Part shown: piece after piece, positions 22,991 to 51,085 of the stretch
Position numbering within the stretch: the stretch's first letter is position 1
Layout: each line of letters begins with the position of its first letter
Notes under the pieces: model-generated
The model's database searches: none
Told to the model about the DNA's origin: nothing
What the model saw: only the letters and a program-made list of their open reading frames with translations
Translations under genes and position numbers: made by a program
Origin: a virus
Virus genome (UHGV): UHGV-0277313
Reading direction: 5' to 3' (one strand)
Length of the DNA stretch: 64,000 nt

Positions 22991-23003
22991 ACATGATTAC
23001 ATT

Positions 23004-28414: not shown

Positions 28415-28744
28415 ATGCCTATTTGTTATGTGTGTGAATCAAGTTTAGCATTGCCTAAAGGAGTATCGACTGAAGAATGTAATTTGTCGATAGATGAAAC
28501 AATACAGAAAGCTGAAGAAGTTGCAATGACAGGAGAGTATGTTTATACTATGTCACCTTTCTTTCTTCAGTCGTTGGTTTTGTTTGCTGATCAAAAAGGT
28601 GTCTTGAATCGTTGGTATTTTATATTATTGCATGACAACGGTTCAAAAGAAGACAAGACAGATAAACGTGAAGATTTGTTTGCAATGATGACATCCCCGT
28701 TGGATCGTTTATTCATGGTCCCTTTTAATGAGGATAATGAATGA
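28415..28744 (+). CDS. hypothetical protein, paralog of the C-terminal half of 19650..20168
   Basis: CYVCESS...YVYTMSPFFLQSL; AAAGGAAG upstream. Confidence 0.5.
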   Translation: MPICYVCESSLALPKGVSTEECNLSIDETIQKAEEVAMTGEYVYTMSPFFLQSLVLFADQKGVLNRWYFILLHDNGSKEDKTDKREDLFAMMTSPLDRLFMVPFNEDNE

Positions 28745-28958: not shown

Positions 28959-29330
28959 ATGATTGAGAAAATTGATAAAGATGATTTGATAAAGCTCAAG
29001 AAGATTATACATAAACTTAAGGGTGTATCATTCAGCAGAAATATCCAATTGGATGATGGTCGTACTGTATTGTGTAAAGCTATCATGACGGGTAAGTTGA
29101 TGAAGCTAAAGGGTTTAGAAACAATATACACACAAAACAATATACTATTCATTGCCAATTGTGATGTCATTGTTAATGATGTAACTAAACATAGGAATCA
29201 AGGGTTTGAGATGTTTATCCAAAGAGATTTATTCAACTTAAAGGATGTAGATAAGGCTGACTTTAAACTGAATGATAAATTTAGAGTAATTCTAAAGGAT
29301 TTATCTGAAGAGACTTTAGACAATATTTGA
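28959..29330 (+). CDS. hypothetical protein, C-terminal-motif family (ends LSEETLDNI)
   Basis: ORF. Confidence 0.55.
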   Translation: MIEKIDKDDLIKLKKIIHKLKGVSFSRNIQLDDGRTVLCKAIMTGKLMKLKGLETIYTQNNILFIANCDVIVNDVTKHRNQGFEMFIQRDLFNLKDVDKADFKLNDKFRVILKDLSEETLDNI

Positions 29331-29340
29331 GGTGTCTTAA

Positions 29341-29799
29341 ATGATTGATAGAAATGATGGGTTATACATACAACAAACAAAGAAGTTGTGCAATGTCAAA
29401 AGCACAAAGAGTAGAGTTGTTGGTTGTAAAGGGTTTATTCTAAATAGATTTGATAGACGCCGTTTGAATAAGCTGATTGCTATTTTCGGTAATCGGTTCT
29501 TTTGTTTAAAGGTAAATTATTTAAGTAGGTCTTACACTTTTGAGTTTAATCTTCAGAGATGTGAACGTGTATCATATTTTGAACATGGCTCAGGATATTT
29601 TGAAAATGACTCAGAATATGAAGTGGTGTTTAGTTGTACAGATAGGAGAAATAGGTCATTCATTGTTCATGAATCTTTATGGAATGATTTGTTAAAATTT
29701 AGGAATGACTGTATAGAATTTACTTTAGAAGAATATTGTGATGATTTGCTATATGTGAAAACTTTAGATTTAGGTTCCTGTACATTAAACGAGATTTAG
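29341..29799 (+). CDS. hypothetical protein, C-terminal-motif family, LNRYDRRRLNK sub-family (ends LGSCTLNEI)
   Basis: GFILNRFDRRRLNKLIAIFG box. Confidence 0.6.
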   Translation: MIDRNDGLYIQQTKKLCNVKSTKSRVVGCKGFILNRFDRRRLNKLIAIFGNRFFCLKVNYLSRSYTFEFNLQRCERVSYFEHGSGYFENDSEYEVVFSCTDRRNRSFIVHESLWNDLLKFRNDCIEFTLEEYCDDLLYVKTLDLGSCTLNEI

Positions 29800-29807
29800 G
29801 TAGTTAC

Positions 29808-30152
29808 ATGTGTGACAAGAAGCTATTAATAGACAACATCGCTATTCTATCAGATTGGTTAAAAGGAAGGAAGGTTCCGGTTCTTGGTGGCAGTTTTACA
29901 ACATTACAAGAAACGGATCTTGATTTAGACCTTGAAACACATGATGGTTTGATCCTATTGGATTATGGCTTCACATTCTTGCAACAGGAATATGGCTGTT
30001 GTTCAGTGGCTATATCTAAAAAAGTACTTGAATCATTAAACAAAGTTGACAAAAGTCTGTTTAGGTTATATGTTAATGAAGATGATATCAGGAGATATTT
30101 CTTAAGGTTTGACATTGCGAATGTTAACGAAGAGTATTTAGAAGGATTGTGA
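29808..30152 (+). CDS. hypothetical protein (ends NEEYLEGL)
   Basis: ORF. Confidence 0.5.
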   Translation: MCDKKLLIDNIAILSDWLKGRKVPVLGGSFTTLQETDLDLDLETHDGLILLDYGFTFLQQEYGCCSVAISKKVLESLNKVDKSLFRLYVNEDDIRRYFLRFDIANVNEEYLEGL

Positions 30153-30153
30153 C

Positions 30154-30501
30154 ATGATTGAAGATGTGACTGATGTAAAGTGTTTACAAAAGCTGACTGC
30201 TATTGTAGAAATTTTAAAAGACACTGTTGTTTTAAATACTTTGCGAGGTGTTACAATGTGTCCGAATAAATATGTTATTCTTGATCAAGCCGGTAGTGCG
30301 ACATATTGGACGAATATTTATTTCTATGAGATCCCCGTTTATGTAAAAATGACTGATGATGATAAAGAAGTTATTAGGGTTTCTTCTTTTTACATGAAGA
30401 AAGACGACGTAGATAATTATCGTATAGGTGATCCTTTATATGTGGATGACTATATTATTTACTTGAAGGATTTGGGCATTGCAGTTTTAGACGAGTTGTG
30501 A
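30154..30501 (+). CDS. hypothetical protein, C-terminal-motif family (ends LGIAVLDEL)
   Basis: ORF. Confidence 0.55.
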   Translation: MIEDVTDVKCLQKLTAIVEILKDTVVLNTLRGVTMCPNKYVILDQAGSATYWTNIYFYEIPVYVKMTDDDKEVIRVSSFYMKKDDVDNYRIGDPLYVDDYIIYLKDLGIAVLDEL

Positions 30502-30502
30502 T

Positions 30503-30874
30503 CTAAATGTTTTCTAAACATAAATGACCCACTTCCTTTTCGACTATTTTAGTAACTTCATCCGGATCATCTGTAACTATAATTTCATTCGCTTTGATTG
30601 TATCAAGTCGTTGTACAATATGATCACTGATATAAATAATCAATGTTCTATATTGTAATTTTTCATTTTGACATGTGACTTGAACAGGTTGAAAGTTTGG
30701 TATTTTGTTTGATATATATTTATCATACTGTCGTAATATAGCTGATTCAATATAGAATTTATATGTTACATAAGAATTGAGTATATGAAAATAAAAGTGA
30801 AACGGTATGCCTTTTAAAAGGTCAGTCAATAAAATATCTGTTTGTGTAGGATGAAGCATTTTTATTTCTGTCAC
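30503..30874 (-). CDS. hypothetical protein, C-terminal-motif family, inverted member (ends VGHLCLENI)
   Basis: Minus-strand ORF; paralog of 33708..34076. Confidence 0.55.
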   Translation of the reverse strand: MTEIKMLHPTQTDILLTDLLKGIPFHFYFHILNSYVTYKFYIESAILRQYDKYISNKIPNFQPVQVTCQNEKLQYRTLIIYISDHIVQRLDTIKANEIIVTDDPDEVTKIVEKEVGHLCLENI

Positions 30875-30998
30875 ATGTTATTTCTATATGTTTAAACTAT
30901 AGAACAATATATGATAGTTTGTCAATGCATTTTTACAGGTTGACAAATAATTGTTTCCTGTGATAGTTTAATATAGTGTTTTTAAATAGGAATGTTAA

Positions 30999-31388
30999 AT
31001 GGTGTCTGATGCATTAAGAATAAAACAAAATCTTTGTATATTGAAAGATTGGTTATATAGTCAATATGTCATCGTATGCAATCCTTTTACAAATCAACAG
31101 GATGATGTAAGACATATCAAATTGTCTGATGAGATTGATGATATCATTTTAATGTTTTTAGGCGATTCAAAAAGTTATGTTGAGTTGATGTGTACAGGAA
31201 TGGTAAATGTTTATACCGTTAATGAAGAAGTGTTTTTAAGGTTGTTCATACCCAAAACATTACTAGAAAAACTAAATGCATTTAGCACAGATTGTTTCAG
31301 AATTAAAAGCAATGAAAAAACGTTTTACAATCACATCATTTATTTTGATCTTAAAGAGTGCAATCTTGTATTATTAGATAGCATTTAG
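30999..31388 (+). CDS. hypothetical protein, C-terminal-motif family (ends CNLVLLDSI)
   Basis: ORF downstream of TTGACA promoter-like sequence at 30943. Confidence 0.55.
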   Translation: MVSDALRIKQNLCILKDWLYSQYVIVCNPFTNQQDDVRHIKLSDEIDDIILMFLGDSKSYVELMCTGMVNVYTVNEEVFLRLFIPKTLLEKLNAFSTDCFRIKSNEKTFYNHIIYFDLKECNLVLLDSI

Positions 31389-31397
31389 GAGTCAATC

Positions 31398-31847
31398 ATG
31401 AAATCTAAAATTGGTGGCAAGTTTTTTAAAAAGTTGTCTGAACAGTCAACGGGAAAAGATAAGTGGTTAGATAAGTGGTTGAGTTCGACAATCTTTTTAG
31501 GTAACCGTTACGATAGAAGACGATTAAAATTTCTAATTTCTTTTTTGTTTGAGAATTCGACAAACAGACCTATCATTTATGATCCGGTAGATAAAGAAGA
31601 ATTGATCCCTGAACGTCTTTTAATCGTGTCTTTTGATGCATCTAGTGAAACATTTTATTTCAATATAAAATACAAAAATCACGACGCAAATGATAGGTGT
31701 TGCAACCTTGTCGTTTCAAAAGAATTGTGGGATGAATTGATTCATTTAGAAAATAAATTTTTTGATTTATGTTTTGATATTGATAAAAACTATATCGTTC
31801 ATGTCGTTAAACAACATGTAGGTCAAGCGTGTTTATCTAGTATATAA
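31398..31847 (+). CDS. hypothetical protein, LNRYDRRRLK sub-family (ends VGQACLSSI)
   Basis: FLGNRYDRRRLKFLISFLF box. Confidence 0.6.
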   Translation: MKSKIGGKFFKKLSEQSTGKDKWLDKWLSSTIFLGNRYDRRRLKFLISFLFENSTNRPIIYDPVDKEELIPERLLIVSFDASSETFYFNIKYKNHDANDRCCNLVVSKELWDELIHLENKFFDLCFDIDKNYIVHVVKQHVGQACLSSI

Positions 31848-31914
31848 AATAGTTGACATTCACCGATTGTTGTTATAGTATACTTAATATGATCAATGAG
31901 CGAAGGTGATTGGA

Positions 31915-32247
31915 ATGAAGTTAACGAACAAACAATTGAAAGTTTTTGCTGATAAGTTGTCTAAACATTTATCCGAATGCAAAGAGAAGTGGATATCTGA
32001 AAACGAGTTTATTAAGTATGAAGCAGATGAGAACTTCAACTTCATTGATGTTGTTAATGGTAATTATCGGTTGATGACAACGTGTTGTGTACAATACACT
32101 TCAGAGATATCATATTGTATTTTAGGCATTGATGATTTTGATGTGTTGTATAAATATAGAAATAAACTTAATCAGTTAGATATCTATATCACAGATGGAA
32201 TAATTAAGGTTAGAGCAATCGGTCAGATAACCTTGAACAATCTGTAA
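31915..32247 (+). CDS. hypothetical protein, YRNKLNQLDIYI sub-family (ends IGQITLNNL)
   Basis: Paralog of 33383 and 34201 along its whole length. Confidence 0.6.
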   Translation: MKLTNKQLKVFADKLSKHLSECKEKWISENEFIKYEADENFNFIDVVNGNYRLMTTCCVQYTSEISYCILGIDDFDVLYKYRNKLNQLDIYITDGIIKVRAIGQITLNNL

Positions 32248-32298
32248 TATATTGACATTTATCTATACTTTTTATATAACATATGTAAGGGTGATATA

Positions 32299-32622
32299 GT
32301 GGATATTAATAGAGAAAGGTTTGTACAGTTGATACAAAAGGTACATGATCAAACTGTAGACTTTGATAAAGGGTCAGTACTGTGTGTCATTAAAGATTTA
32401 GCTAGAGAACCGATATACTGTGTTAGTATAAATGATGAATTGTACTATCGTATTATTGTTAAAGTAAAGACTATTCCTTTAGGAAGTATGTTATCTAAAA
32501 CTATCTATATCAAAGATAACTTGTTAAAGAGTATATACGATATAGAAAAAACATCATTTAAAATGAATGGTGATTTTATTGAGTTAGAAAACATAGGTCA
32601 GATTGTTTTGGAAGAAATTTAA
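32299..32622 (+). CDS. hypothetical protein, C-terminal-motif family (ends IGQIVLEEI)
   Basis: ORF. Confidence 0.55.
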   Translation: MDINRERFVQLIQKVHDQTVDFDKGSVLCVIKDLAREPIYCVSINDELYYRIIVKVKTIPLGSMLSKTIYIKDNLLKSIYDIEKTSFKMNGDFIELENIGQIVLEEI

Positions 32623-32722
32623 AATAATGTCAACTTTGATTGTTGCAAACAAGATTTTTAAAGATATATCTATTATTTATAATATGAATGAAGAAAGACT
32701 TAAGAATATATAGGTGATTGCT

Positions 32723-33064
32723 ATGCGTGGTAGATTTTATATCATTGAAAGAAGACATCAGAATGATGATACAGACATTATCACATTGAACCGTTGTAAA
32801 GGTAATATCATCACACAATCTGAAGAAGAGTTTTTTAATTATATAAAAGACTATCGTTTTAAAGAGTATACGAAATACGCTATCAAGTTTACTGATTGTT
32901 TTAATATAGCATTATACTTAAATAAAGTAATGAATATTTTATCAAGATATAGACTGATTGATTGTATGGTTTCTATCAGTGAAGTAGATGAGCGTCATTA
33001 TTTTAATATTGAGTTTCAAGTATTGAACAAACATATTGGTACATTCGCTTTAGAAAGTATTTAA
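32723..33064 (+). CDS. hypothetical protein, C-terminal-motif family (ends IGTFALESI)
   Basis: ORF. Confidence 0.55.
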   Translation: MRGRFYIIERRHQNDDTDIITLNRCKGNIITQSEEEFFNYIKDYRFKEYTKYAIKFTDCFNIALYLNKVMNILSRYRLIDCMVSISEVDERHYFNIEFQVLNKHIGTFALESI

Positions 33065-33084
33065 TATAGATAGGAAGGTGTGTC

Positions 33085-33369
33085 ATGCCGACATTGATTG
33101 TAGCCAATAAAGTCATTAAAGATGTGTCTATAGTAAATAAGCAAAGAAATCGTATTACACTTCGTATGTTAACTAAAGACTCGAATTACTTCAAACATGA
33201 TATCAAAAATGCAAATAAAGATGATCCTGTTATGTATGAAGCGTTTAAAAGAAGTTGCGCGTGTACGTTGTTTGTAAATACAGAATCTTTTAGTAATTGT
33301 GTTGCAGTAAACATTCGCAAATCACGTTTAACAGGTTATCGTATTGTGACATTTGAAAGATTATCATAA
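33085..33369 (+). CDS. hypothetical protein
   Basis: 94-aa ORF after GGAAGGTG. Confidence 0.5.
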   Translation: MPTLIVANKVIKDVSIVNKQRNRITLRMLTKDSNYFKHDIKNANKDDPVMYEAFKRSCACTLFVNTESFSNCVAVNIRKSRLTGYRIVTFERLS

Positions 33370-33382
33370 ACAGGTGACTGTA

Positions 33383-33697
33383 ATGAAGATGACGATTAGA
33401 CAACGTAAAATTTTAGCTGATAAAATATCTGAACATCTAGTAACTATCAAAGAAAGCGATTCAAATAAGTTTGTTTATTTAAAGGGTAAAAGCCTTATTG
33501 ATATTGTTGATGGTCGCTATACATTATGGACAACTTGTCTAGGTACATTTAAACAACCCGTGTTTTGTGATTTGTATATTGATGATATTGATTTGTTGTT
33601 AAAATATCAAAACAAACTTAATGAATTGGATATTTATGTTGATAAAGATTTCATTAAGGTGCGCAATATTGGTGAAATGACATTCAATAAGATATAA
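33383..33697 (+). CDS. hypothetical protein, YQNKLNELDIYV sub-family (ends IGEMTFNKI)
   Basis: Paralog of 31915 and 34201. Confidence 0.6.
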   Translation: MKMTIRQRKILADKISEHLVTIKESDSNKFVYLKGKSLIDIVDGRYTLWTTCLGTFKQPVFCDLYIDDIDLLLKYQNKLNELDIYVDKDFIKVRNIGEMTFNKI

Positions 33698-33707
33698 CTT
33701 TTTTATG

Positions 33708-34076
33708 TCATACTTCATTCAAACAAATTGAACCTATTTCTTTTTCTGATATTTCTATTGCATTTAAATCTTTATTTAATATCAATTCAACATCTTCTTT
33801 TTTAACTGTGTCAATTTTAGATAACAAACGTTTATTGATATATGCCGTGTCTTGTGCAAATACGACATCGTTACCCATGTATGAAAAAGTTTCCAGTTGA
33901 ACGGGTTGTAAATTATCATCTTGATAAAACAATTCTTTTTCTTTTATTTTTGTGGTAACGTCTGTTATATAAAAACGTTGATCCCTGTTTAAAAGATTTA
34001 TTGCATACGACATGTTTTTCAACAGACTTGTCAGTATCACGTCAACATCTTGATTTTGCATTTTATTCTGAATCAC
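33708..34076 (-). CDS. hypothetical protein, C-terminal-motif family, inverted member (ends IGSICLNEV)
   Basis: Minus-strand ORF; paralog of 30503..30874. Confidence 0.55.
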   Translation of the reverse strand: MIQNKMQNQDVDVILTSLLKNMSYAINLLNRDQRFYITDVTTKIKEKELFYQDDNLQPVQLETFSYMGNDVVFAQDTAYINKRLLSKIDTVKKEDVELILNKDLNAIEISEKEIGSICLNEV

Positions 34077-34200
34077 TTTTTATCATTTACATTAAATTAA
34101 CTTTATAGTATTTATCATTTTCTGTCAATACAAAATATTTTATTGACAAGTGTTTATATATTCTATATGATAGAACTGTTGATTTGGTGAGGTGTATGTA

Positions 34201-34548
34201 ATGGTTGAGTTCATGAAACTGTCAAAAATTGATAGAATTAATTTTGCAGAAGAGTTGGCAAAACATATTGCAACTATTAATGAAAGGGTTTTATCAACAT
34301 CGTCAGTTGTTGCATATAAGAGTGGCAAAGCAATGATTGTAAAAAAGGGTGATATGTATGCATTGTGGACAGTGTGTCACCCGCAGTATGAAGCACTTGA
34401 TTCTTATGTTAAAACATGTGTGTTATGGCTTAAAGATTTTGATTTGTTATGGGATTATCGTAATAAATTAAAGCAGCTTGATTTGTATATTGAAAATGAT
34501 TGCATTAAGGTTCGTCATATTGGTGAATTTGTAATGAATAGGATTTAG
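34201..34548 (+). CDS. hypothetical protein, YRNKLKQLDLYI sub-family (ends IGEFVMNRI)
   Basis: Paralog of 31915 and 33383; TTGACA N17 TATGAT promoter-like sequence at 34141. Confidence 0.6.
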   Translation: MVEFMKLSKIDRINFAEELAKHIATINERVLSTSSVVAYKSGKAMIVKKGDMYALWTVCHPQYEALDSYVKTCVLWLKDFDLLWDYRNKLKQLDLYIENDCIKVRHIGEFVMNRI

Positions 34549-34556
34549 GTGCAGAC

Positions 34557-34913
34557 ATGAGAAAGTTTAAGATGTATCATAAATTAGATAAAAAGCAAAT
34601 TTTCCAATTAAAAAAGCGGTTGCAGAATCGTGAATATATTGGAGTCGATAATAATAAATATCGTTTTCCTTATATACGAAATTTTGTTGTTTTTGATTCT
34701 GCAGAAGTTTGGGAATATGAAGATGGTGAAGTTTGGTATCACTTCGATATAAAGTCTGAATGTATTAAAAATAAAAAATTGGATTGGCATTTATTTTGCA
34801 TTCCGGAAAATGATGTAGAAGAATTTTTAAATAGTCATTGTAAGTTTCATATTGATACAGAGTCAAGCATCATTTTAGATACAGTAGGTCAAACTGTTTT
34901 GGAGAATATTTAA
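34557..34913 (+). CDS. hypothetical protein, C-terminal-motif family (ends VGQTVLENI)
   Basis: ORF. Confidence 0.55.
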   Translation: MRKFKMYHKLDKKQIFQLKKRLQNREYIGVDNNKYRFPYIRNFVVFDSAEVWEYEDGEVWYHFDIKSECIKNKKLDWHLFCIPENDVEEFLNSHCKFHIDTESSIILDTVGQTVLENI

Positions 34914-34915
34914 TT

Positions 34916-35248
34916 ATGATATTTTCAGATAAGCAAAGAATCGTTTTAGCGAATTTATTTGACGGTTTGACATTCAATGATGGTGAGTATTCCTATATAG
35001 TTATTTCTTCAAACTATAAGGATATTAATGCTATATGTAGCGAGGTTGACTTTAATAATGTTAAATATTATGTAATCGAAGTAATTAGTCAAGAAAGATA
35101 TCAATACTTAACGAGACGTAAACATATAGGGTTGTTTGTCAAGGAAGATTATTTGCAGTGTATCTTGGATAACAAGTGCAAAGTCTATATTGATGGCTTC
35201 GTTGTATGTATTCATGACGTTGGAAACTTTTGTTTAGATGAGGTTTAG
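34916..35248 (+). CDS. hypothetical protein, C-terminal-motif family (ends VGNFCLDEV)
   Basis: ORF. Confidence 0.55.
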   Translation: MIFSDKQRIVLANLFDGLTFNDGEYSYIVISSNYKDINAICSEVDFNNVKYYVIEVISQERYQYLTRRKHIGLFVKEDYLQCILDNKCKVYIDGFVVCIHDVGNFCLDEV

Positions 35249-35250
35249 CA

Positions 35251-35721
35251 ATGGGCGATAAGATACGTTTCAAAATGATTAAAAATCCGAAAATAAAAAA
35301 ACATCGTATTTGTGGCAAGTTTTTTAAAAAGTTGTCTGAACAGCCCCCAACACACGGTGAATGGTTATATTCAACAATCTTTTTTGGAAATCGTTATGAT
35401 AGAAGACGTTTTAAATTTTTGTTGTCGTTGCTGTTTGATGACATTCAAGGAAAGCCTATTTTATATAGTTCAGGTGATTCACGAGTTTTAACACCTGAAA
35501 AGGTTACTGACATTTCATATAATACAGTCGATAAACAATATTATTTTATTGTCAAATGTACCTGTTTTCATTATGTGGCTGTGGTTATTTCAAAAGAGCT
35601 ATGGCACGAATTGATTCATCTGAAAAACAAATATTGTGATTTGAAGTTTGAAACAGATTTGATAGGTAACGAGCATTTGGTAAAACAACAAATTGGGGCA
35701 TCGTGTTTAAATGGTATATAA
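35251..35721 (+). CDS. hypothetical protein, LNRYDRRRFK sub-family (ends IGASCLNGI)
   Basis: FFGNRYDRRRFKFLLSLLF; close paralog of 31398 (CGKFFKKLSEQ...). Confidence 0.6.
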   Translation: MGDKIRFKMIKNPKIKKHRICGKFFKKLSEQPPTHGEWLYSTIFFGNRYDRRRFKFLLSLLFDDIQGKPILYSSGDSRVLTPEKVTDISYNTVDKQYYFIVKCTCFHYVAVVISKELWHELIHLKNKYCDLKFETDLIGNEHLVKQQIGASCLNGI

Positions 35722-36097
35722 AAAACGAGTTCAGAAATTATTTGATTTGAAGCCCGTTAATAATCCGTTCTGGGTTTTTTATAAAGGTTTTGTGCTAAAT
35801 CGTTATGAAAGAAGAAGACTAAACAAAATTATCCGTTTCGTAAAAACAAATGATACTTTCAAGGATTTTGGAATATTAAAAGTTGAAAATATATGTTATA
35901 AAAGAGACTATCAATTAGTCGAGATACGTGTACTATGTTTAGAATATGACTATATAAGTGTTGCTGTAAAAAAAGATTTGTGGGAAAATTTATTGAAGTT
36001 TGATATTAATTACTTAACTGTCAGTCACCCGCTTGATTTTTACTATATAGTAAATGTTGATAAAACAGTTGGTGAAGTGACTTTGAATAATTTTTAA
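35711..36097 (+). CDS. hypothetical protein, LNRYERRRLNK sub-family (ends VGEVTLNNF)
   Basis: GFVLNRYERRRLNKIIRFV. Confidence 0.6.
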   Translation: MVYKKRVQKLFDLKPVNNPFWVFYKGFVLNRYERRRLNKIIRFVKTNDTFKDFGILKVENICYKRDYQLVEIRVLCLEYDYISVAVKKDLWENLLKFDINYLTVSHPLDFYYIVNVDKTVGEVTLNNF

Positions 36098-36137
36098 TGT
36101 CGCTTGAAAATATGTTTTCAGTTTATGAAAGATTGTC

Positions 36138-36533
36138 ATGGGAAAAAGATTTAAAAAGATTGCTGATACTTACCAGTTCGTAACAGGTTTTATATTGAAT
36201 CGTTATGACAGGCGTCGGTGCAATAAAATTAGAAAGACTTTCATTGGAAGAGAAATTGAAGCGTACAATGTTGGTAATGAACAGTCTGATGTTTTAACAA
36301 TCAATGACGTGTCTTTGTGGGAATATAAAAGAAATCTTAATCGATACCTTTTTATCTTTAAATTATCAAACGGTTTCAGCACACCAGTCTTTTTGGATGG
36401 AACATTATATGATAACTTGAATCAGGTTGATAACAAACAGTTAGGAATGAAGTGTGTTATTTATAATTCGGATCGTTTTGAGCAGTATATTGTTTTAAAT
36501 GATATTGGCGACGCCTGTTTAAAAACATTTTAG
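36138..36533 (+). CDS. hypothetical protein, LNRYDRRRCNK sub-family (ends IGDACLKTF)
   Basis: GFILNRYDRRRCNKIRKTF. Confidence 0.6.
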   Translation: MGKRFKKIADTYQFVTGFILNRYDRRRCNKIRKTFIGREIEAYNVGNEQSDVLTINDVSLWEYKRNLNRYLFIFKLSNGFSTPVFLDGTLYDNLNQVDNKQLGMKCVIYNSDRFEQYIVLNDIGDACLKTF

Positions 36534-36626
36534 AATAGTTAATATTTTTTAAAGTTAAATATTTTATACATAAGACGTTGTAATGTAAGGTATGTTTTCA
36601 TTAACAGTCATGGAGATAATTTCTAG

Positions 36627-36980
36627 ATGAACGCAGATGCCATTGTAAAGAAAGTTGTTGATTGGTTTGTAGGTCAAACGGTTAGTGTGAACAAACCTAA
36701 TTCTGATATAACTTTAACATTTCATATAGATGAATTCATACCTTCAGAAACATTGGAACTGTCTGATGGTATTTATTTGCGCTTTAATACTAAAATTAGG
36801 AACGATAATGAAGTGATACTTTGTTCAATTTTGATGGTTGATAAAAGATTTTTTGATGCTATAGAATCAACAGATACAAAATTCTTCAGGTATTCAAGTA
36901 AGTTTTTAAATTATTCAGCAGGGTATATTTTTTTCTTTGAGTTTGCAGATTTAAATAACGAATGTCTTGAAAATATTTGA
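36627..36980 (+). CDS. hypothetical protein, C-terminal-motif family (ends LNNECLENI)
   Basis: ORF. Confidence 0.55.
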   Translation: MNADAIVKKVVDWFVGQTVSVNKPNSDITLTFHIDEFIPSETLELSDGIYLRFNTKIRNDNEVILCSILMVDKRFFDAIESTDTKFFRYSSKFLNYSAGYIFFFEFADLNNECLENI

Positions 36981-36991
36981 ACAGGTGAATT

Positions 36992-37357
36992 ATGAAGTTT
37001 GAACACACTGATAAAGACATTATTGATAAATGTGAAGCTATCCTTTTAAGAGTTGTAAACATTAACGATATTTATTATAGTAATGACAGGTTTTCAGCAG
37101 GAATAATTTCAACTATGTCTGATCCGCCGTATAGAGAAAAAGCAAAAGGTATATATGTGTTTGTAGATGCAACAAGATATTCAACAAATAAAAACGATGC
37201 AGTGTTGTGTGTTTACATTTGTAACGAGTTATTAGAACTAGACAAACAAGATATATCCAAGAAACAATTTAAAATTGAGAATACACAGATTAATTCGTTG
37301 AATTATTTACATGTTTGTGAAATTGGTATTGGTGAATCTGTTTTGGAACAAATGTAA
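36992..37357 (+). CDS. hypothetical protein, C-terminal-motif family (ends IGESVLEQM)
   Basis: ORF. Confidence 0.55.
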   Translation: MKFEHTDKDIIDKCEAILLRVVNINDIYYSNDRFSAGIISTMSDPPYREKAKGIYVFVDATRYSTNKNDAVLCVYICNELLELDKQDISKKQFKIENTQINSLNYLHVCEIGIGESVLEQM

Positions 37358-37409
37358 TGTTTGATTAAATAAATTGAAAGTTATTCTAAATTAGAAGGTA
37401 ATTAAACTT

Positions 37410-37718
37410 ATGACGAATTTTGTAGCATTTAATGGAAAGACTTTAAAAGTAATTTGCAAAGAATTAGGCTTGAATTATACAACTGTCACACAACGAAGAA
37501 TGAAAGATCCGGGAAAACCTTTAGAAGCGTACCTGTATCCGGCAAGAAAGAATAAAGGTGGAAACTGTTGTGCAGATTATTTTACAAACGATGGTAAATC
37601 TGTTTATCAATTATTTAAAAACAACAAATCACAATATTCAAAAATGCTCTATTTAATGGGGAAGAAGAAATTAAGTTTCGATGAAGCTTATGAAATTGTC
37701 ATGGAAGAAAACAAGTAA
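37410..37718 (+). CDS. hypothetical protein
   Basis: 102-aa ORF. Confidence 0.5.
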   Translation: MTNFVAFNGKTLKVICKELGLNYTTVTQRRMKDPGKPLEAYLYPARKNKGGNCCADYFTNDGKSVYQLFKNNKSQYSKMLYLMGKKKLSFDEAYEIVMEENK

Positions 37719-38056
37719 TGCCGTATACGTCATACATATATGAAGAATTAACAGTAACAAAAGCTTTTGAATTTAAGGAAGCTTTAAAAGGAACAAAATT
37801 TTTATTTAAAAATAATACTTATACTATTGTTGACATTGGAACTTGTTTGTATTCCTTACATGGTTCTGAACCGTGGTCGTTGAAAGTTAAAGCTGTCACA
37901 GATGCAAACGGTATATCAATGACAAGAGAGTTTTCATTTTATATTGATGAAAGTTTAATCGATAATAATCTTGATTATAAGAACATGATGTTCGGGATTG
38001 TTAATGATGAAATCGTAGCTTCAAGTGTAGGACAAGAAGTGTTAAACCAAATATAA
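37718..38056 (+). CDS. hypothetical protein, C-terminal-motif family (ends VGQEVLNQI)
   Basis: ORF overlapping the upstream stop. Confidence 0.55.
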   Translation: MPYTSYIYEELTVTKAFEFKEALKGTKFLFKNNTYTIVDIGTCLYSLHGSEPWSLKVKAVTDANGISMTREFSFYIDESLIDNNLDYKNMMFGIVNDEIVASSVGQEVLNQI

Positions 38057-38086
38057 AACAAAATTGATTAATTTTAATGTATTATA

Positions 38087-38125
38087 AAAGCGGCTGATCA
38101 TTTTAAGGTCAACCGCTTTTATTTT
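38087..38125. terminator. bidirectional rho-independent terminator between convergent genes
   Basis: AAAAGCGGCTGATC...GGTCAACCGCTTTTATTTTTA. Confidence 0.6.
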
Positions 38126-38140
38126 TATCTAATTAACTGT

Positions 38141-39043
38141 TTACTGTTTATCGATTTGATGTTGTTTAAGATATTCACGAATTTCATCATCAAACGCAAA
38201 AGACAGTGCTGTTTTATTTTCATCAGAAACAGCATCAACATCAGCACCTTTTTCAACTAGCAATTTGACAGTATCAAAATCATTATGAAGTGTCGCATTC
38301 ATCAATGCCGTCATCCCTGTAGATGAACGAGCATTAACGTCAGCACCGTTTTCTAATAACATCTTAATGATATCTATAGAGTCTTGACGGCAAGCAAAGA
38401 TTAAAGGAGTGTCGCCTTCCCAATCTGTATTATCAATATCAGCACCAAGTTCTATAGCTTTTTGTGCAAGTTCAAGTTTATTGAGAATGCAGCTTCCAGT
38501 TAAAAGACGATTCGGGTCTTTAATTTCCGCATTGTGTTTGATTAATGTTTCAATAATATCATAAGCGTATTCGTATGCACCTTCTGATAACAGAACGTCA
38601 GCAGTTGTCATTCCGTTTATATTAGTAATGTTTGTATCAGCACCATGTTCTAATAACCAATTTATAGTTTCAATATCACCATAACCGAGACATGTGATAT
38701 ATAAAATTGTTTCGCCGCTTTTATTTTTAAAATTTAAATCAGCCCCGTGTTCATATAATAATTGAGCAACTTCAAGATTGTCAAGATAGATAGCACGAAA
38801 CAAAGGAGTTTCACCAAATTGGTCTGTCATGTTGACATCAACTTGAGGGTTATCTTCCAGAAGTTGTTTAATTGTTTCGAAGTCATTTGAGAACAGTTTG
38901 ATTTTCGTATCATCTGTTTCATCTTCTTCAATCATTTTTATAACCATTTCTTTTAGTTTGTATTTAACTGAACGTTTAAAAGATTCGAGTTTTAAATTTT
39001 CATCATTCATGTATTTAGTCCTTGTGTCAATAAAACGATGCAA
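38141..39043 (-). CDS. ankyrin-repeat protein (about 7 repeats)
   Basis: Repeated G-TPL--A------V--LL--GAD-N motifs, e.g. GETPLFRAIYLDNLEVAQLLYEHGADLNFKN and GDTPLIFACRQDSIDIIKMLLENGADVNAR. Confidence 0.85.
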   Translation of the reverse strand: MHRFIDTRTKYMNDENLKLESFKRSVKYKLKEMVIKMIEEDETDDTKIKLFSNDFETIKQLLEDNPQVDVNMTDQFGETPLFRAIYLDNLEVAQLLYEHGADLNFKNKSGETILYITCLGYGDIETINWLLEHGADTNITNINGMTTADVLLSEGAYEYAYDIIETLIKHNAEIKDPNRLLTGSCILNKLELAQKAIELGADIDNTDWEGDTPLIFACRQDSIDIIKMLLENGADVNARSSTGMTALMNATLHNDFDTVKLLVEKGADVDAVSDENKTALSFAFDDEIREYLKQHQIDKQ

Positions 39044-39530
39044 CTTTTGGTGATAGTGTTTTTAAGTATTTTGGTTCGACAATGTCTAGCATGTTTACTT
39101 TTTTAAGTAAGCTATACGGAGATGACCAAATATTTTCTTGACTATATAAATCAGCACCATGACGAAGCAAATAATTTATTTTATCTTTTTCATCATCAAT
39201 ATCTTCTTGTGTTGTGTGACTATCTAAACTATCAACAAAATTTTTTGTAATCATCTGTAAGACTTTATTCATTCGTTCATTATCAAAATAAACTTTATAA
39301 TGATCAAGAATCAAATCAGCAACGTCAAAAGCTTTACTTTCAAAACAAATAGCAAATGCGATTCGACTATCAATTCCTAAATCTTTAGGATGCTGTTCTT
39401 CAAAAGATTTAATTTCATCAACAGTCATTGTTTCGACAGTTGCATATTCACGTTCAACAAGTTGTGTTAATTTGTTATTGATGACTGTTTTAAAGCTTTC
39501 GATTAAAGTTTCTTTGTTCAACATTGACAA
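39027..39530 (-). CDS. hypothetical protein with a C-terminal ankyrin-like segment (LLRHGADLYSQ)
   Basis: Minus-strand ORF co-oriented with the ankyrin gene. Confidence 0.55.
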   Translation of the reverse strand: MSMLNKETLIESFKTVINNKLTQLVEREYATVETMTVDEIKSFEEQHPKDLGIDSRIAFAICFESKAFDVADLILDHYKVYFDNERMNKVLQMITKNFVDSLDSHTTQEDIDDEKDKINYLLRHGADLYSQENIWSSPYSLLKKVNMLDIVEPKYLKTLSPKVASFY

Positions 39531-39591
39531 CCTGATATTTATATGTTAAGTTAATTATCTTAAAGAACGGTTGTTTTGAAAGATGATTTAG

Positions 39592-39942
39592 ATGTCTAAA
39601 ATAAAAAATATCACAAAACTAATGCTGAATAGTTTTTTAATAAATGATTGGTTTTTCAATTTAACATCTGAACAACAAAATAAAATGTTGGGTTTATTGA
39701 AGAGAGTTGTTAAAAATGATTATAATTTAGATATTGAAATCAAGGGTGTTATTTCACAAACCTTTTTCATTAGCTCAATTTGTTTTACAATAAAATTAAA
39801 CAATGGTGAACAATTGGAAATCTATGTTTCTGACGAAATTGACAACTATAAAGATAAACTAGATTGTATCTGTTTAAAAAGAGTTAAAGACAATGAGTTC
39901 AATGTTGCAGAAATTGGTGAATCAGTGTTAAAAGAGTTGTGA
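39592..39942 (+). CDS. hypothetical protein, C-terminal-motif family (ends IGESVLKEL)
   Basis: ORF. Confidence 0.55.
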   Translation: MSKIKNITKLMLNSFLINDWFFNLTSEQQNKMLGLLKRVVKNDYNLDIEIKGVISQTFFISSICFTIKLNNGEQLEIYVSDEIDNYKDKLDCICLKRVKDNEFNVAEIGESVLKEL

Positions 39943-39943
39943 T

Positions 39944-40279
39944 ATGATTGATTTTGATAAGTTAACAAAAGAACAGTTATACGAATTCATTGATGTTTTT
40001 GATGAATTGATTTTAAAAGAATACGGTTGGTGTCGAGCGTATGATAAAGAAGCGTTTTTGGAAGATTTGCTAGAAACAATTCACAAGGTTGATAACGTCT
40101 ATTGTTTTTATGTGGATGTTAAAAGAAAGGGTGGCAAGAAACGCAATTCAAGATTTTTCTATTTTGATACATTATTTTTTGAGAGCAAATGTAAATTTCA
40201 CAAAATGAAATTGAAACGTGTTGATGAAACAACATTCATGTTAGCAGATGTTGGTTATGAATTGTTAAGAAATATTTAA
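39944..40279 (+). CDS. hypothetical protein, C-terminal-motif family (ends VGYELLRNI)
   Basis: ORF. Confidence 0.55.
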   Translation: MIDFDKLTKEQLYEFIDVFDELILKEYGWCRAYDKEAFLEDLLETIHKVDNVYCFYVDVKRKGGKKRNSRFFYFDTLFFESKCKFHKMKLKRVDETTFMLADVGYELLRNI

Positions 40280-40287
40280 GTAGGAAG

Positions 40288-40662
40288 ATGTACATGCAAT
40301 TACAGGTAGGTATTGGTTTAGATAGTGTTGTTAAAAAGTCACAAGAGTTAGTTGAACAATCATCACCTTTATATATTGATGACAATGGAGTCAAGAGGTT
40401 AGTATTAGGTGTTCATACAAGGATTGATTCCGGTTTAATTTTTGATGATGATTACTATTATATTGATGTTGCAACAAAGATAGTTGACGAAGATTATTTT
40501 CAAACAAAAGCAACAATCCGTGTAGCTGTTGATAAAAAAGTTATCGATGCAATAAAAGACGTAAAACAATATAAAGCAAAATTTGTTAATAGAAATGTTT
40601 CAATATGTAATAACGTTCTAGAAATCGTGGAATTAGGTGAACGTGTTTTACAAAGGATTTAG
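40288..40662 (+). CDS. hypothetical protein, C-terminal-motif family (ends LGERVLQRI)
   Basis: ORF. Confidence 0.55.
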   Translation: MYMQLQVGIGLDSVVKKSQELVEQSSPLYIDDNGVKRLVLGVHTRIDSGLIFDDDYYYIDVATKIVDEDYFQTKATIRVAVDKKVIDAIKDVKQYKAKFVNRNVSICNNVLEIVELGERVLQRI

Positions 40663-40667
40663 ATATC

Positions 40668-41060
40668 ATGTTAATGAAGCTTCCAAAAAATTCACAAGTA
40701 ATGAAAAATGCAAGAAACTTATTTAAAGCAGCTAAAGGTTTACAAGTTGAAGTACCCGAAAATAAAGCGTTTGTTATTACAGAAATGGTTGATTCAACTA
40801 TAGTTTATAAAATGGATGCAAACGGTTGTGAATATTTAGGGTTCAGTGTTAAATCGTTATATTTTTATTTAGGTATATTGAACGGAGAACATCCAATTAT
40901 TATTAATACGATTTGGTGTTTGCGTAGTTGGATTGAACAAACATCAGATTTTAAAAAGGAAAATCTTGAATTCTTTCAATTTGATGGAACAGGTAATCTA
41001 TATGGTAAATTAATTATTCAAGATAAATCAATTGGACAAATGCTATTAAACAATGTTTAG
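40668..41060 (+). CDS. hypothetical protein, C-terminal-motif family (ends IGQMLLNNV)
   Basis: ORF. Confidence 0.55.
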   Translation: MLMKLPKNSQVMKNARNLFKAAKGLQVEVPENKAFVITEMVDSTIVYKMDANGCEYLGFSVKSLYFYLGILNGEHPIIINTIWCLRSWIEQTSDFKKENLEFFQFDGTGNLYGKLIIQDKSIGQMLLNNV

Positions 41061-41092: not shown

Positions 41093-41120
41093 AAAAATCT
41101 AATTGATTAAGGACACGCTA

Positions 41121-43391
41121 ATGAAATATCTAATTTTGCTTCGGGGTCTTCCTGGTTCTGGTAAAAGTTATTGGATAAAAGAAAACAAATTAGAAGATTA
41201 TACTATTTCTTCTGATAATGTTCGTTTGTTGTTTGCAACACCGTCTATTCCTTTTCAGGCTTGTTATAAGGATAGAGGAATTTCACAAAAGAATGACAAA
41301 GAGGTTTGGGATTTAATACATTCTTTAGTTGAACGTCGTTTAATGGAAGGCATGACAACTATCGTTGATGCAACACATTTGACTGTTAAGTCTATTAATT
41401 ATTACAAAAGCTTTTGTGCAAGTAATAATGTACGTTGTATCGTATTGGATTTTAATGTTAGCCTGGAAAGTGCTATTAACAATGATTTGTTAAGAAAAGG
41501 CACTTGTCGTTATGTAGGTTGTCAGATCATTAAAATAATGAATGACAAAAAAGAAGATGTGCCTAAATGGGTTGATTATACAACTGATAAAGAGCATGTT
41601 GTCAAGCTGTTTAATGACTGTATAGACGCGGTTGATTACAATGAGAAGTATGATAGCGTTGTAATCTTCGGTGATTTGCATGGTTGTTATGAACCTTTAA
41701 AACAGTGGTTTGACAAACATCCTGTTAACGACAAAACGAAATATATCTTTTGTGGTGATTATGAAGATAGAGGTATTCAACATAAAGAGTTGTTTGATTT
41801 TCTTTTAGAACATCGCAAAGATTTTAATTTCAAATTCTTAAAAGGCAATCATTCTTGTCGTTTGTTACAGATAGCTGAACGTGATAAAGATTCTATTCGT
41901 TATCCGGAATACTATAATACGTTTGAACAAATGAAAGATTTTGATCCTATTGAACTGAAAAAGTTTGTTCGGGATCAAGATGATATGGTTTACTTTACAT
42001 TTCGTAATAAAAACTTTTGTGTATCACATGGTGGTATTAGTTGTCTTCCGACTTTAAAGTTGAATAGTAGTGAATACATAAAAGGTCACGGAACATATCA
42101 AATGTCAAATGATGTGGATAATGATTTTATGTTCAATTCTTCTATTGAAGGTGATAACATTTATCAGGTACATGGTCATCGCAACGTTACAAATAGTGAT
42201 ATTCAAGTATGTGATCGTTGTTTTAATTTGGAAGGAGGAGTTGAGTTCGGTGGTGAATTACGAATTCTTCAGATTGATAGTGAAGGTAAATGTATACTGG
42301 ATTCTATTAGAAATACTGTTTTTAAAGAATTGACGGAAGGTTCGAAGATTGTCAATGAGTTTAAGTATTCTTCATTGATTAGAAAGTCGCAAAACCCAAA
42401 CGGTATTAGTTCTTATAACTTTAATCGAGACGCTTTTTTTGATAAAAAGTGGAATAGCTTGACGTGTACCGCAAGGGGCTTGTTTGTATATGATGATACA
42501 GATAAAGTTGCAGCAAGGTCTTTTAACAAATTCTTTAATTTGAATGAAACTAGTACTTCGAAATTAGATTATATTGTGAAGAATTGGTGTGGCGTCACGA
42601 ATGTTTATAAAAAGGAAAACGGATATTTAGGTATCATTTCTGTTGATGTTCGTGATAACAGTTTCATTTTAGCATCGAAAAGTCGTACTGATAAAGAGTT
42701 CGCAACGAATATTAGTAGAATCTTTAATGAAAAATTGTCAGAAGAACAACAGAACAATTTGAAGAAATGGTTATTGAAGGATGTGGATAAACATCAAGGT
42801 AATGCATATTCTTTAGTTGTTGAAGTAATTGATCCAATTAACGATCCGCATTTTGTTCAATATGATAAAGATGATATTGTTGTTTTGGATGCATTCGTTA
42901 ATGACTTTAATGAAAAAACTGTTTCATATGATGAACTGATTTCATTACATGACTTAACAGGTTTGACAATAAAAGAAAAGATTTGTGAGACGTGTGATCT
43001 AAAGACAACAATTCATGAACTTTGTAATACCAAAGATCATATCGAAGGATTTGTTTTAGAAGGGCATGATTATAATGGCAAGACTGTTCGTGTGAAGATT
43101 AAAACAAAATGGTACTTGATGTGGAAGAAGTTCAGATCAACAGGTGATTTCGATGAACGATTCGACATTAAAGATTTTTTGACAGTTGAACAACAAAAAT
43201 ACGCCAAACAAATCTATAGCCGAACAAAACAATTGATCGATTTACGTAATGGAGATACAGTTAGTACTGATGGTTCAATAAATGTAAATGATGAAATTGA
43301 CAATTATGTTATGTTTATTTATAGAGATTTGATTGGTGATTCGCGGATTAATATACCGAAAATTATACAATCTGTTGAAAATGTGAAATAG
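41121..43391 (+). CDS. polynucleotide kinase / metallophosphatase / ligase-like RNA-repair enzyme (CthPnkp-like)
   Basis: P-loop LLRGLPGSGKSYW; calcineurin-type phosphatase motifs VVIFGDLHGCYEPL, FCGDYEDRG, KGNHS; ligase-like motif I YKKENGY in the C-terminal third. Confidence 0.7.
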   Translation: MKYLILLRGLPGSGKSYWIKENKLEDYTISSDNVRLLFATPSIPFQACYKDRGISQKNDKEVWDLIHSLVERRLMEGMTTIVDATHLTVKSINYYKSFCASNNVRCIVLDFNVSLESAINNDLLRKGTCRYVGCQIIKIMNDKKEDVPKWVDYTTDKEHVVKLFNDCIDAVDYNEKYDSVVIFGDLHGCYEPLKQWFDKHPVNDKTKYIFCGDYEDRGIQHKELFDFLLEHRKDFNFKFLKGNHSCRLLQIAERDKDSIRYPEYYNTFEQMKDFDPIELKKFVRDQDDMVYFTFRNKNFCVSHGGISCLPTLKLNSSEYIKGHGTYQMSNDVDNDFMFNSSIEGDNIYQVHGHRNVTNSDIQVCDRCFNLEGGVEFGGELRILQIDSEGKCILDSIRNTVFKELTEGSKIVNEFKYSSLIRKSQNPNGISSYNFNRDAFFDKKWNSLTCTARGLFVYDDTDKVAARSFNKFFNLNETSTSKLDYIVKNWCGVTNVYKKENGYLGIISVDVRDNSFILASKSRTDKEFATNISRIFNEKLSEEQQNNLKKWLLKDVDKHQGNAYSLVVEVIDPINDPHFVQYDKDDIVVLDAFVNDFNEKTVSYDELISLHDLTGLTIKEKICETCDLKTTIHELCNTKDHIEGFVLEGHDYNGKTVRVKIKTKWYLMWKKFRSTGDFDERFDIKDFLTVEQQKYAKQIYSRTKQLIDLRNGDTVSTDGSINVNDEIDNYVMFIYRDLIGDSRINIPKIIQSVENVK

Positions 43392-48236: not shown

Positions 48237-48328
48237 GGAAATGTGGATGAGTGGTTTAAATCAGCGGTTTGCTAAACCGTCGGGCATAGAAATATGTCCC
48301 GCAAGTTCGAATCTTGCCGTTTCCGCCA
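48237..48328 (+). tRNA. tRNA-Ser (anticodon GCT), class II
   Basis: Acceptor GGAAATG/CGTTTCC; anticodon loop TTGCTAA; long variable arm CGGGCATAGAAATATGTCCCG; T-arm GCAAGTTCGAATCTTGC; discriminator G then CCA. Confidence 0.8.
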
Positions 48329-48355
48329 AAAGTTTCTGTAGAAGATACAGGTTAC

Positions 48356-48449: not shown

Positions 48450-48481
48450 ATTTTAATTTGCATTTTGAAAGTTGGGTAGAT

Positions 48482-51082: not shown

Positions 51083-51085
51083 TTT

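Follow-up and report, generated by a model that had tools for sequence, protein, structure and literature searches.

Small proteins ending in a shared, strictly C-terminal motif in an uncultivated jumbo phage

Introduction

The UHGV virus genome UHGV-0277313 raises the question as to why dozens of small proteins encoded by a single phage should end in almost the same few residues. In the stretch of DNA analyzed here, a window of 64,000 nt to which all the coordinates given below refer, a short glycine-containing motif forms the extreme C-terminus of many small predicted proteins, 25 of which are encoded in a 12-kb array at 28959-41060. A metagenome scaffold of 276,920 bp in ENA contains the window sequence and sister contigs reach lengths of up to 313 kb: the source is therefore an uncultivated jumbo phage whose genome measures 277 kb or more, and one of the window genes recurs on at least 20 contigs. 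We asked whether the motif is real and selected, whether it marks one protein family or a tag carried by various proteins, and what it might do.

Statistical support for the C-terminal motif

The motif was counted at the ends of the 252 open reading frames (ORFs) of at least 50 amino acids (aa) predicted in the window. The strict pattern [IVL]-G-x3-[LF]-[NEDK]-x-[IVLF]-stop closes 23 of these ORFs, where its frequency inside the proteins predicts 0.07. A relaxed version closes 31 (0.15 predicted from internal occurrences; mean 0.1 and maximum 2 ORF ends in 1000 residue shuffles), giving an enrichment of the motif over chance of at least 200-fold, and the loose pattern G-x3-[LFMIV]-x2-[IVLFM]-stop closes 44, as compared with 0.9 expected. 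Among the 31 ORFs with relaxed ends, 29 are on the coding strand of this region (plus) and two on the minus strand. No ORF in the window carries the relaxed motif followed by 1-19 additional residues. The six tails quoted as examples in the earlier note were all recovered: IGETTLNKI (18511-18879), IGKETLNNI (27030-27329), IGQITLNNL (31906-32247), LGSCTLNEI (29341-29799), VGQTVLENI (34557-34913), and IGTACLNEI (63000-63359). The terminal motif is thus real, and the statistical support for it is overwhelming.

Selection on the peptide

Since the region is AT-rich (28-31% guanine plus cytosine, GC) and promoters often follow stop codons, the shared ending might have been an artefact of codon usage, or the by-product of a DNA or RNA element located at the gene ends, such as a promoter, a ribosome-binding site, a terminator, or a recombination site. 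We consider this explanation already refuted. The 31 relaxed ends observed, as against about 0.1 in the shuffles and internal counts, are not accounted for by composition, and, as the earlier note had stated, the nucleotides at the gene ends are not conserved: the conserved glycine is encoded by all four codons (GGT 22, GGA 12, GGG 5, GGC 4) and the conserved leucine by five different ones, the sequence 3' of the stop codon is not conserved among the members, and DNA patterns with at least 14 fixed bases match only 0-1 of 48 gene ends. Given this free synonymous variation in the conserved codons, the target of selection is the peptide and not the DNA. The ratios of nonsynonymous to synonymous substitution rates (dN/dS), calculated with orthologs in two sister phages in which the motif is kept, range between 0.08 and 0.88 in all the members tested, showing that they are genuine coding genes and that purifying selection acts on them; the median ratio (about 0.3) is about three times that of the neighboring genes (about 0.1).

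Members of the family

Forty-two members in the window form the core on which a family hidden Markov model (HMM) was trained. The core proteins are about 100-150 aa long, a length of about 115 residues being typical. In this circular comparison of the training members with their own HMM, 41 of the 42 match at E<1e-4 and the remaining one (32714-33064) at E=0.018; the E-values in the following list are self-matches of this kind.

10642-11058, plus: family member, tail DGEKALKEI; HMM E=4.5e-8
11055-11372, plus: family member, tail IGERTIGRI; relaxed motif; HMM E=2.2e-7
11376-11729, plus: family member, tail CGEVILERI; HMM E=7.3e-7
11743-12120, plus: family member, tail TGKQTLQEI; HMM E=1.9e-6
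15561-15920, plus: family member, tail IGEQCLEGV; strict motif; HMM E=8.5e-5
16648-17037, plus: family member, tail DGSVVLNII; HMM E=1.4e-6
17050-17382, plus: family member, tail AGKNTLNTI; HMM E=7.4e-14; linked to 32299-32622 without the motif
17440-17796, plus: family member, tail IGTHTLNNL; strict motif; second AlphaFold2 model; true start may be downstream (ortholog P0006)
17811-18176, plus: family member, tail IGTVVMEMV; HMM E=4.9e-18; rank 1 in the motif-free leave-one-out test
18173-18541, plus: family member, tail CGEVVLGGI; HMM E=5.3e-15
18511-18879, plus: family member, tail IGETTLNKI; strict motif; likely start 18541 (ortholog P0004)
19274-19624, plus: family member, tail IGCQTLFSV; HMM E=2e-13; rank 1 in the leave-one-out test
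26722-27012, plus: family member, tail IGNEAFNKI; strict motif; blastp pair with 27030-27329
27030-27329, plus: family member, tail IGKETLNNI; strict motif; HMM E=1.3e-12
28959-29330, plus: family member, degenerate tail LSEETLDNI (Ser for Gly); HMM E=1e-14
29341-29799, plus: family member, NR[FY][DE]RRR sub-family, tail LGSCTLNEI; strict motif; blastp cluster of five
29808-30152, plus: family member, degenerate tail VNEEYLEGL (Asn for Gly); HMM E=5.7e-13; joins the NR[FY][DE]RRR sub-family without the motif
30154-30501, plus: family member, tail LGIAVLDEL; strict motif; HMM E=3e-6
30503-30874, minus: family member, tail VGHLCLENI; strict motif; own promoter-like site at 30925-30896
30999-31388, plus: family member, degenerate tail CNLVLLDSI; HMM E=1.9e-7; linked without the motif
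31398-31847, plus: family member, NR[FY][DE]RRR sub-family, tail VGQACLSSI; relaxed motif; blastp cluster
31906-32247, plus: family member, tail IGQITLNNL; strict motif; blastp trio with 33353-33697 and 34192-34548
32299-32622, plus: family member, tail IGQIVLEEI; first AlphaFold2 model
32714-33064, plus: family member, weakest HMM match (E=0.018), tail IGTFALESI; strict motif
33353-33697, plus: family member, tail IGEMTFNKI; strict motif
33708-34076, minus: family member, tail IGSICLNEV; strict motif; promoter-like site at 34128-34100
34192-34548, plus: family member, tail IGEFVMNRI; HMM E=3.4e-19
34557-34913, plus: family member, tail VGQTVLENI; strict motif
34916-35248, plus: family member, tail VGNFCLDEV; strict motif
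35251-35721, plus: family member, NR[FY][DE]RRR sub-family, tail IGASCLNGI; strict motif; only three database relatives, 80-97% identical
35711-36097, plus: family member, NR[FY][DE]RRR sub-family, tail VGEVTLNNF; strict motif
36138-36533, plus: family member, NR[FY][DE]RRR sub-family, tail IGDACLKTF; strict motif
36627-36980, plus: family member, degenerate tail LNNECLENI; HMM E=1.4e-11
36992-37357, plus: family member, tail IGESVLEQM; relaxed motif
37718-38056, plus: family member, tail VGQEVLNQI; strict motif; only a C-terminal ORF of 65-69 aa in sister phages
39592-39942, plus: family member, tail IGESVLKEL; strict motif; absent from sister contigs L004 and L008
39944-40279, plus: family member, tail VGYELLRNI; relaxed motif
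40288-40662, plus: family member, tail LGERVLQRI; relaxed motif; rank 1 in the leave-one-out test
40668-41060, plus: family member, tail IGQMLLNNV; strict motif
62263-62676, plus: family member, tail LGQTTLESI; strict motif; promoter-like site at 62206-62234
62689-63000, plus: family member, tail AGVYTLETV; HMM E=2.1e-12
63000-63359, plus: family member, tail IGTACLNEI; strict motif; the family continues past the end of the window (L017)

The family HMM also detects four of the five untrained motif-ending ORFs located within 10 kb beyond the right end of the window (E 2e-5 to 4e-4). At least 42 members are therefore present in the window, where they make up about 40% of the genes, and at least five further motif-ending ORFs occur just beyond it on the same 277-kb scaffold. 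The total of about 48 given in the earlier note is reached if degenerate ends are counted; six of these proteins, however, have only the motif-like end and are listed here as possible members.

662-1270, plus: possible member, 202 aa, with only the tail IGELTFSTI; relaxed motif; no match to the family HMM or to an HMM of the C-terminal 50 aa
1281-1877, plus: possible member, 198 aa, tail VGEDCLITL; loose motif only; no HMM match
1859-2335, plus: possible member, 158 aa, tail DGVGCLYTI; loose motif only
6565-6894, plus: possible member, 109 aa, tail DGLRTIHSI; loose motif; promoter-like site at 6558
22694-22990, plus: possible member, 98 aa, tail KAKDCLKEI (no Gly); tail only; no HMM match
47366-47845, plus: possible member, 159 aa, tail FGETILNKI; loose motif; HMM E=0.049

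The gene at 9992-10651 has a loosely similar end but matches rIIB, and was set aside as probably a chance match. The isoelectric points of the core proteins range from 4.3 to 9.5, so that their surfaces are diverse; their net charge ranges from -10 to +10 and the median protein is acidic. No signal peptides were seen by eye in the family proteins. Five members (29341-29799, 31398-31847, 35251-35721, 35711-36097, and 36138-36533) have an additional N-terminal basic motif, G-F-[IV]-L-N-R-[YF]-[DE]-R-R-R-[LFC]-[NK]-K, which is absent from the other members and which may serve a function specific to this sub-family, such as nucleic-acid binding.

Conserved block and predicted fold

When the 42 core members were stacked from the C-terminus, the conserved end, initially described as nine residues long, proved to be the last part of a 14-residue block, h-x-h-x-[DENH]-[IVL]-G-[EQ]-x-[TVC]-L-[NED]-x-[ILV]-COOH. 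The information content peaks at the glycine in position -8 (4.0 bits) and the leucine in position -4 (2.7 bits); next come positions -5 and -1, with 2.1 bits each, and the fixed positions of the block are -14, -9, -8, -5, -4, and -1. In 26 pairs of orthologs, only 1-2 changes were found to have occurred at positions -9, -8, -4, and -1, as compared with 7-9 at positions -7, -6, -3, and -2, where the level of change exceeds the protein average.

Two AlphaFold2 models were built from the alignment of the 42 paralogs. In that of 32299-32622 (mean predicted local distance difference test score, pLDDT, 75.7; predicted template modeling score, pTM, 0.60) the motif forms a helix at residues 99-106, and in that of 17440-17796 (pLDDT 81.5, pTM 0.70) it forms a helix at residues 110-117. 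Both models show the same order of elements: an N-terminal helix, a three- to four-stranded sheet, a second helix, a beta-hairpin, and the short C-terminal helix corresponding to the motif, which directly follows the hairpin with no linker; no disordered or flexible tail is predicted. The last ten residues of the block are predicted to be a terminal helix with a cap: the motif fits a capping box (N-cap at -10, Glu/Gln in the N3 position at -7) followed by two amphipathic turns, the apolar face of which would consist of positions -9, -5, -4, and -1.

The best fold matches, which are weak and score below the usual thresholds, are with the PC4-like, Whirly, and PUR proteins, in which a curved three- to four-stranded sheet is followed by a helix and the helices mediate dimerisation (PMC7549692). 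If the family consisted of single-stranded nucleic-acid binders of this type, the motif would be the dimerisation helix, as in the beta-beta-beta-beta-alpha fold that dimerises through swapped helices (PMC7549692). We find this unlikely: based on the order of the elements rather than a residue-level alignment, the helix matching the PC4-like one is probably the internal helix and not that of the motif, the proteins of the present family have an N-terminal helix, a hairpin, and a terminal helix in addition to that fold, and the range of net charges leaves no common basic surface.

The predicted fold also bears on the possibility that the motif may be a degradation or processing signal, either a C-terminal degron that, through a host protease, would make all the members short-lived, or a site for the M16 peptidase encoded by the phage itself at 44243-45538, 3 kb downstream. 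An apolar C-terminus in a fixed position and the presence of a conserved M16-family peptidase gene adjoining the array would be in line with this idea. The motif is predicted to be structured, however, and not to form an exposed tail, it does not resemble the ssrA-like (LAA) or MuA-like C-terminal degrons, and the link with the peptidase, drawn from proximity, is pure speculation; a signal of this kind seems quite improbable to us.

Relationships among the members

Comparisons by blastp join only small sub-families. Over their whole length, the members nevertheless have in common their size and the order of the predicted elements, and some links persist when the last ten residues are removed: in iterative searches, the five NR[FY][DE]RRR proteins still join 29808-30152 and 30999-31388, and 32299-32622 still joins 17050-17382. 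In leave-one-out tests with motif-free HMMs, the held-out protein ranked first in 7 of 48 cases and among the top 6 of 409 proteins in 12 of 48 (0.7 expected). An hhalign comparison between the upstream group and the array group gave P=0.034 in the columns immediately preceding the motif, as against 0.3-0.5 in reversed controls. On account of the common size, the predicted element order, the motif-free links, and the leave-one-out enrichment, the approximately 42 core proteins would most simply be one deeply diverged paralog family, the motif being its best-kept element. The earlier view that different bodies carry a common tail holds insofar as there is little similarity outside the motif and the N-termini are not conserved among the members, but it does not sit well with the common size and element order or with the links obtained without the motif.

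Organization and turnover of the array

The 12-kb array at 28959-41060 carries 25 members, two of which (30503-30874 and 33708-34076) are on the minus strand. Four non-members are interspersed with them:

33085-33369: non-member, 94 aa
37410-37718: non-member, 102 aa
38141-39043, minus: ankyrin-repeat protein
39027-39530, minus: second protein, about 167 aa

Conservation in sister phages is 91-98% for the two minus-strand non-members, located midway through the array, which is far above the level of the surrounding family members. The array of about 28 back-to-back, often overlapping genes described previously thus exists, but with fewer members and few true overlaps (gaps of -17, -11, and -1), most junctions consisting of gaps of 1-11 nt or of promoter-bearing gaps of 40-125 nt.

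Sites of the type TTGACA-N15-19-TAnnnT are enriched in the window (36 found versus 9.7 expected; none of 100 shuffles reached 36). Sites of this kind fill the larger intergenic gaps ahead of the members on both strands, and include the following consensus matches:

30940-30969, plus: sigma-70-like promoter (TTGACA-N-TAnnnT) ahead of 30999-31388
31853, 32252, 34143, 39524, 41064, and 62206, plus: similar promoter-like sites
30925 and 34128, minus: similar promoter-like sites

Their enrichment in the gaps ahead of the members suggests, on the basis of the consensus, that the genes may form short operons read early in infection by the host RNA polymerase. These sites also bear on the hypothesis that the motif is a virion-packaging or injection signal, the proteins traveling in the capsid and being delivered with the DNA. 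This idea stems from analogy, in that many small proteins would share a terminal signal. The internal proteins of phage T4 carry an N-terminal capsid-targeting sequence. Here, in contrast, conservation is seen at the C-terminus, in an element for which a folded state is predicted, and not at the N-terminus; the genes nearby (rIIA, DNA methylases, RNA repair, tRNAs) are of the kinds typical of early or accessory regions, and about 50 different cargo species would be unprecedented. We infer from the sigma-70-type promoters ahead of the genes that virion or injection targeting is the least likely of the functions put forward in the earlier note, and it has very little probability in our opinion.

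The array evolves faster than its surroundings: in sister phages, the flanking genes coding for RNA repair and the M16 peptidase are 97-98% identical, while the family members are 65-98% identical, and several members are absent from one or both sister phages or truncated. The ortholog of 37718-38056 is an ORF of only 65-69 aa in all five sister contigs, with the C-terminal half and the motif intact (L004 12564-12761; L008 12184-12393); these short orthologs could be either a decaying gene or a stand-alone C-terminal module.

Searches for known relatives

When all 42 members were scanned against Pfam-A, PHROGs v4, and PADLOC, no family was matched by more than one member and none at the curated cut-off. 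The best match of the family profile with the PDB sequences had an E-value of 0.24, no significant match was found in BFVD, and tblastn of one member against the GenBank phages gave no match. The family is therefore undescribed in these resources, as had been supposed. A profile search among 1.84 billion representative proteins gave 23 matches, 21 of which are small proteins (99-152 aa) close to window genes, which look like orthologs from the same phage clade; the other two, which are large proteins, look spurious. Word-indexed searches led to the same outcome. The known orthologs are too close to the window genes to enrich the family profile. In IMG/VR, the more distant relatives of the RNA-repair fusion protein encoded next to the array (33-34% identity) come from contigs of about 173-174 kb (L001-L003), on which no motif genes lie within 10 kb. 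Across the libraries searched, the family is restricted to one uncultivated jumbo-phage clade.

Interpretation

The reading that we prefer, with a probability of roughly one half, is that these are early, cytoplasmic, single-domain host-interaction proteins, in which the capped terminal helix is an invariant structural or assembly element while the other surfaces diversify. On this view, the small cytoplasmic proteins would all be paralogs that have diverged deeply within a single family, massively expanded and specific to this lineage. The terminal helix would be a part of the scaffold that cannot be changed, either because it closes the fold against the sheet or because it provides a contact in a homo- or hetero-oligomer; its apolar face and the glycine would be fixed, the exposed positions of the helix would be free, and the rest of the surface would diversify. 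The host-type promoters, the fast evolution, and the turnover between sister phages point to a battery of early host-interaction proteins, possibly binders involved in takeover or anti-defence and each directed at a target of its own, the identity of these targets being a guess.

Several observations weigh against this interpretation. The similarity between sub-families is marginal outside the last 14 residues: most of the motif-free leave-one-out tests fail, the profile-profile comparison reaches a P value of only 0.034, and the motif-free iterative searches join only some of the sub-families. The alignment supplied to AlphaFold2 already assumes homology, and the pLDDT falls to 66-67 over the motif from 78-93 just before it. 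Five or six longer proteins, the bodies of which show no detectable similarity to the family, also end in the motif, which hints that the end may be portable. Lastly, none of the 31 ORFs with the relaxed motif extends by even one residue past the last hydrophobic residue, and such intolerance is less usual in an ordinary terminal helix than where a free C-terminus is recognized; the ban on extension therefore leaves room for a shared docking, targeting, or degradation function.

The main alternative is a docking function. The motif might be a portable docking helix tethering about 50 diversified binder domains to a single hub, which could be a host machine (a protease, a chaperone, RNA polymerase, or the clamp) or a phage partner; according to this adaptor logic, the variable body would pick the target and the constant tail would deliver it. 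The exact position of the motif at the free C-terminus is the strongest support for this idea, to which can be added the fact that it is the only strongly conserved element across the paralogs, its presence at the end of several longer proteins for the bodies of which no relation to the family was detected, the lower model confidence there than in the preceding hairpin, and the intact motif in the short orthologs of 37718-38056. Shared C-terminal docking peptides are known to exist in the clamp-binding tails of T4 gp43, gp33, and gp55, the ClpX-binding tail of SspB, and the PRANC/F-box of poxvirus ankyrin proteins. The present case resembles them in having a constant extreme C-terminus on otherwise differing proteins with no extension tolerated; it differs in that the partners of those tails are known and the tails themselves are either flexible peptides or domains of their own, whereas here the end directly follows a hairpin and, according to the models, would be a capped helix belonging to the domain. 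The absence of a flexible linker and the helical prediction in both models thus argue against docking, and a conserved glycine with an apolar face is also the pattern to be expected in the case of intramolecular packing. We take docking to be possible, and hold this view tentatively. The more specific proposal that the capped helix is a portable tethering tag, one hub reading the free C-terminus and some 50 fast-diversifying binders being deployed via that interface, strikes us as rather doubtful.

Genomic context

The window resembles an early or accessory region of a large phage genome. The GC content is 36-40% over the first 24 kb, about 28-31% over most of the region between 26 and 47 kb, and 27% at 46-48 kb; the family array belongs to the most AT-rich part of the window, and the GC skew is positive throughout, in keeping with a single direction of transcription. 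Nothing close to the window was found among the GenBank phages, and a megablast search with the array gave no match. The other features recognized are as follows.

3951-6550: EcoRI-type adenine methylase adjoining a GmrSD_N/HNH nuclease-like protein
7607-9916: rIIA-like gene
9992-10651: rIIB-like gene, directly after the rIIA-like gene
12640-13191: resolvase-like serine recombinase, helix-turn-helix at the C-terminus; a block of family members lies on either side
41103-43391: kinase-phosphatase-RNA ligase fusion, 762 aa (P-loop kinase, metallophosphatase, T4 Rnl1-type RNA ligase)
44243-45538: full-length M16 (insulinase-type) peptidase, 97-98% conserved in sister phages
48458-49312: Dam-type D12 methylase inside the tRNA region
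58400-59482: TnpB (OrfB_IS605 / Cas12f-like TNB)

The phage has its own DNA-modification and restriction-like genes (the EcoRI-type methylase, the GmrSD_N/HNH protein, and the Dam-type D12 methylase). ARAGORN called 13 tRNA genes in the region 48237-55178, eight of which were confirmed by Rfam; some of the calls are odd or overlong (Ile-tat 94 nt, Phe-aaa 68 nt). Three stretches of about 750-1150 bp in this cluster (49313-50463, 51874-52625, and 53808-54675) contain no ORF of at least 50 aa and have no Rfam match at the gathering score; they could correspond to unrecognized RNAs or degraded tRNAs. The RNA-repair fusion gene is located 5 kb upstream of the tRNA cluster, and the combination resembles a kit for tRNA repair and replacement directed against anticodon nucleases.

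Weak relatives of the M16 peptidase are encoded by Bacillus phage G (gp2) and by phage contigs from human faeces. The recombinase at 12640-13191 is barely over the Pfam Resolvase cut-off (23.7 versus 23.3 bits). A second TnpB copy (L017 12142-13335) is located about 2.6 kb past the end of the window on the same scaffold, and the two copies show that IS605-family elements are present in this phage; a search for TnpB homologs in bacterial genomes yielded only distant, scattered matches, the nearest genomic relatives being 37% identical. Two other sets of paralogs linked by blastp were noted. The first consists of three larger proteins of 201-296 aa (14218-15108, 20961-21740, and 22972-23577), two of which have the N-terminal sequence LGEK[CN]FKK[FV] in common. 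The second consists of 19635-20168 and 28415-28744, which have acidic tails and do not belong to the motif family.

Comparison with known systems and significance

Large phages and giant viruses are known to have multigene families specific to a lineage as well as hyperplastic regions filled with small early genes, which do not constitute one homologous family. The genes in the present array resemble them in being small, tightly packed, preceded by host-type promoters, fast-evolving, and gained or lost between close relatives. They differ in that about two-fifths of the genes in 64 kb belong here to a single family with one C-terminal block, with no homolog in GenBank phages, PHROGs, or Pfam. 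As a type of arrangement, the expansion of one gene family within the hyperplastic early region of a given lineage is thus already known; the family itself, its scale, and the strictly terminal conserved helix are new.

Tandem strings of polymorphic paralogs serving as immunity proteins or inhibitors are also known, such as the esaG strings that adjoin type VII secretion toxins (PMC9484751). They too are arrays of non-identical small paralogs, and their diversification and recombination are consistent with an arms race. They are bacterial, lie beside a toxin locus, and belong to recognizable families, whereas the present array is borne by a phage and has no toxin partner and no family match.

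The expansion of these paralogs is unusually large for a phage; such expansions are, as a rule, the sign of an arms-race interface with the host. With more than 45 variants on one small scaffold and a single fixed element, the family provides a tractable system: the series of variants makes it possible to ask both what the variable surfaces bind, host machinery or defence systems, and whether the invariant helix serves to close the fold, to oligomerise, or to dock. If the terminal helix were indeed a tethering tag, it would be the phage counterpart of the constant-adaptor-plus-variable-binder logic known from the poxvirus ankyrin/PRANC proteins and effector delivery signals. A tail serving as a shared docking tag would amount to a new organizing principle for phage accessory proteins, and would provide a ready-made handle for pull-down experiments.

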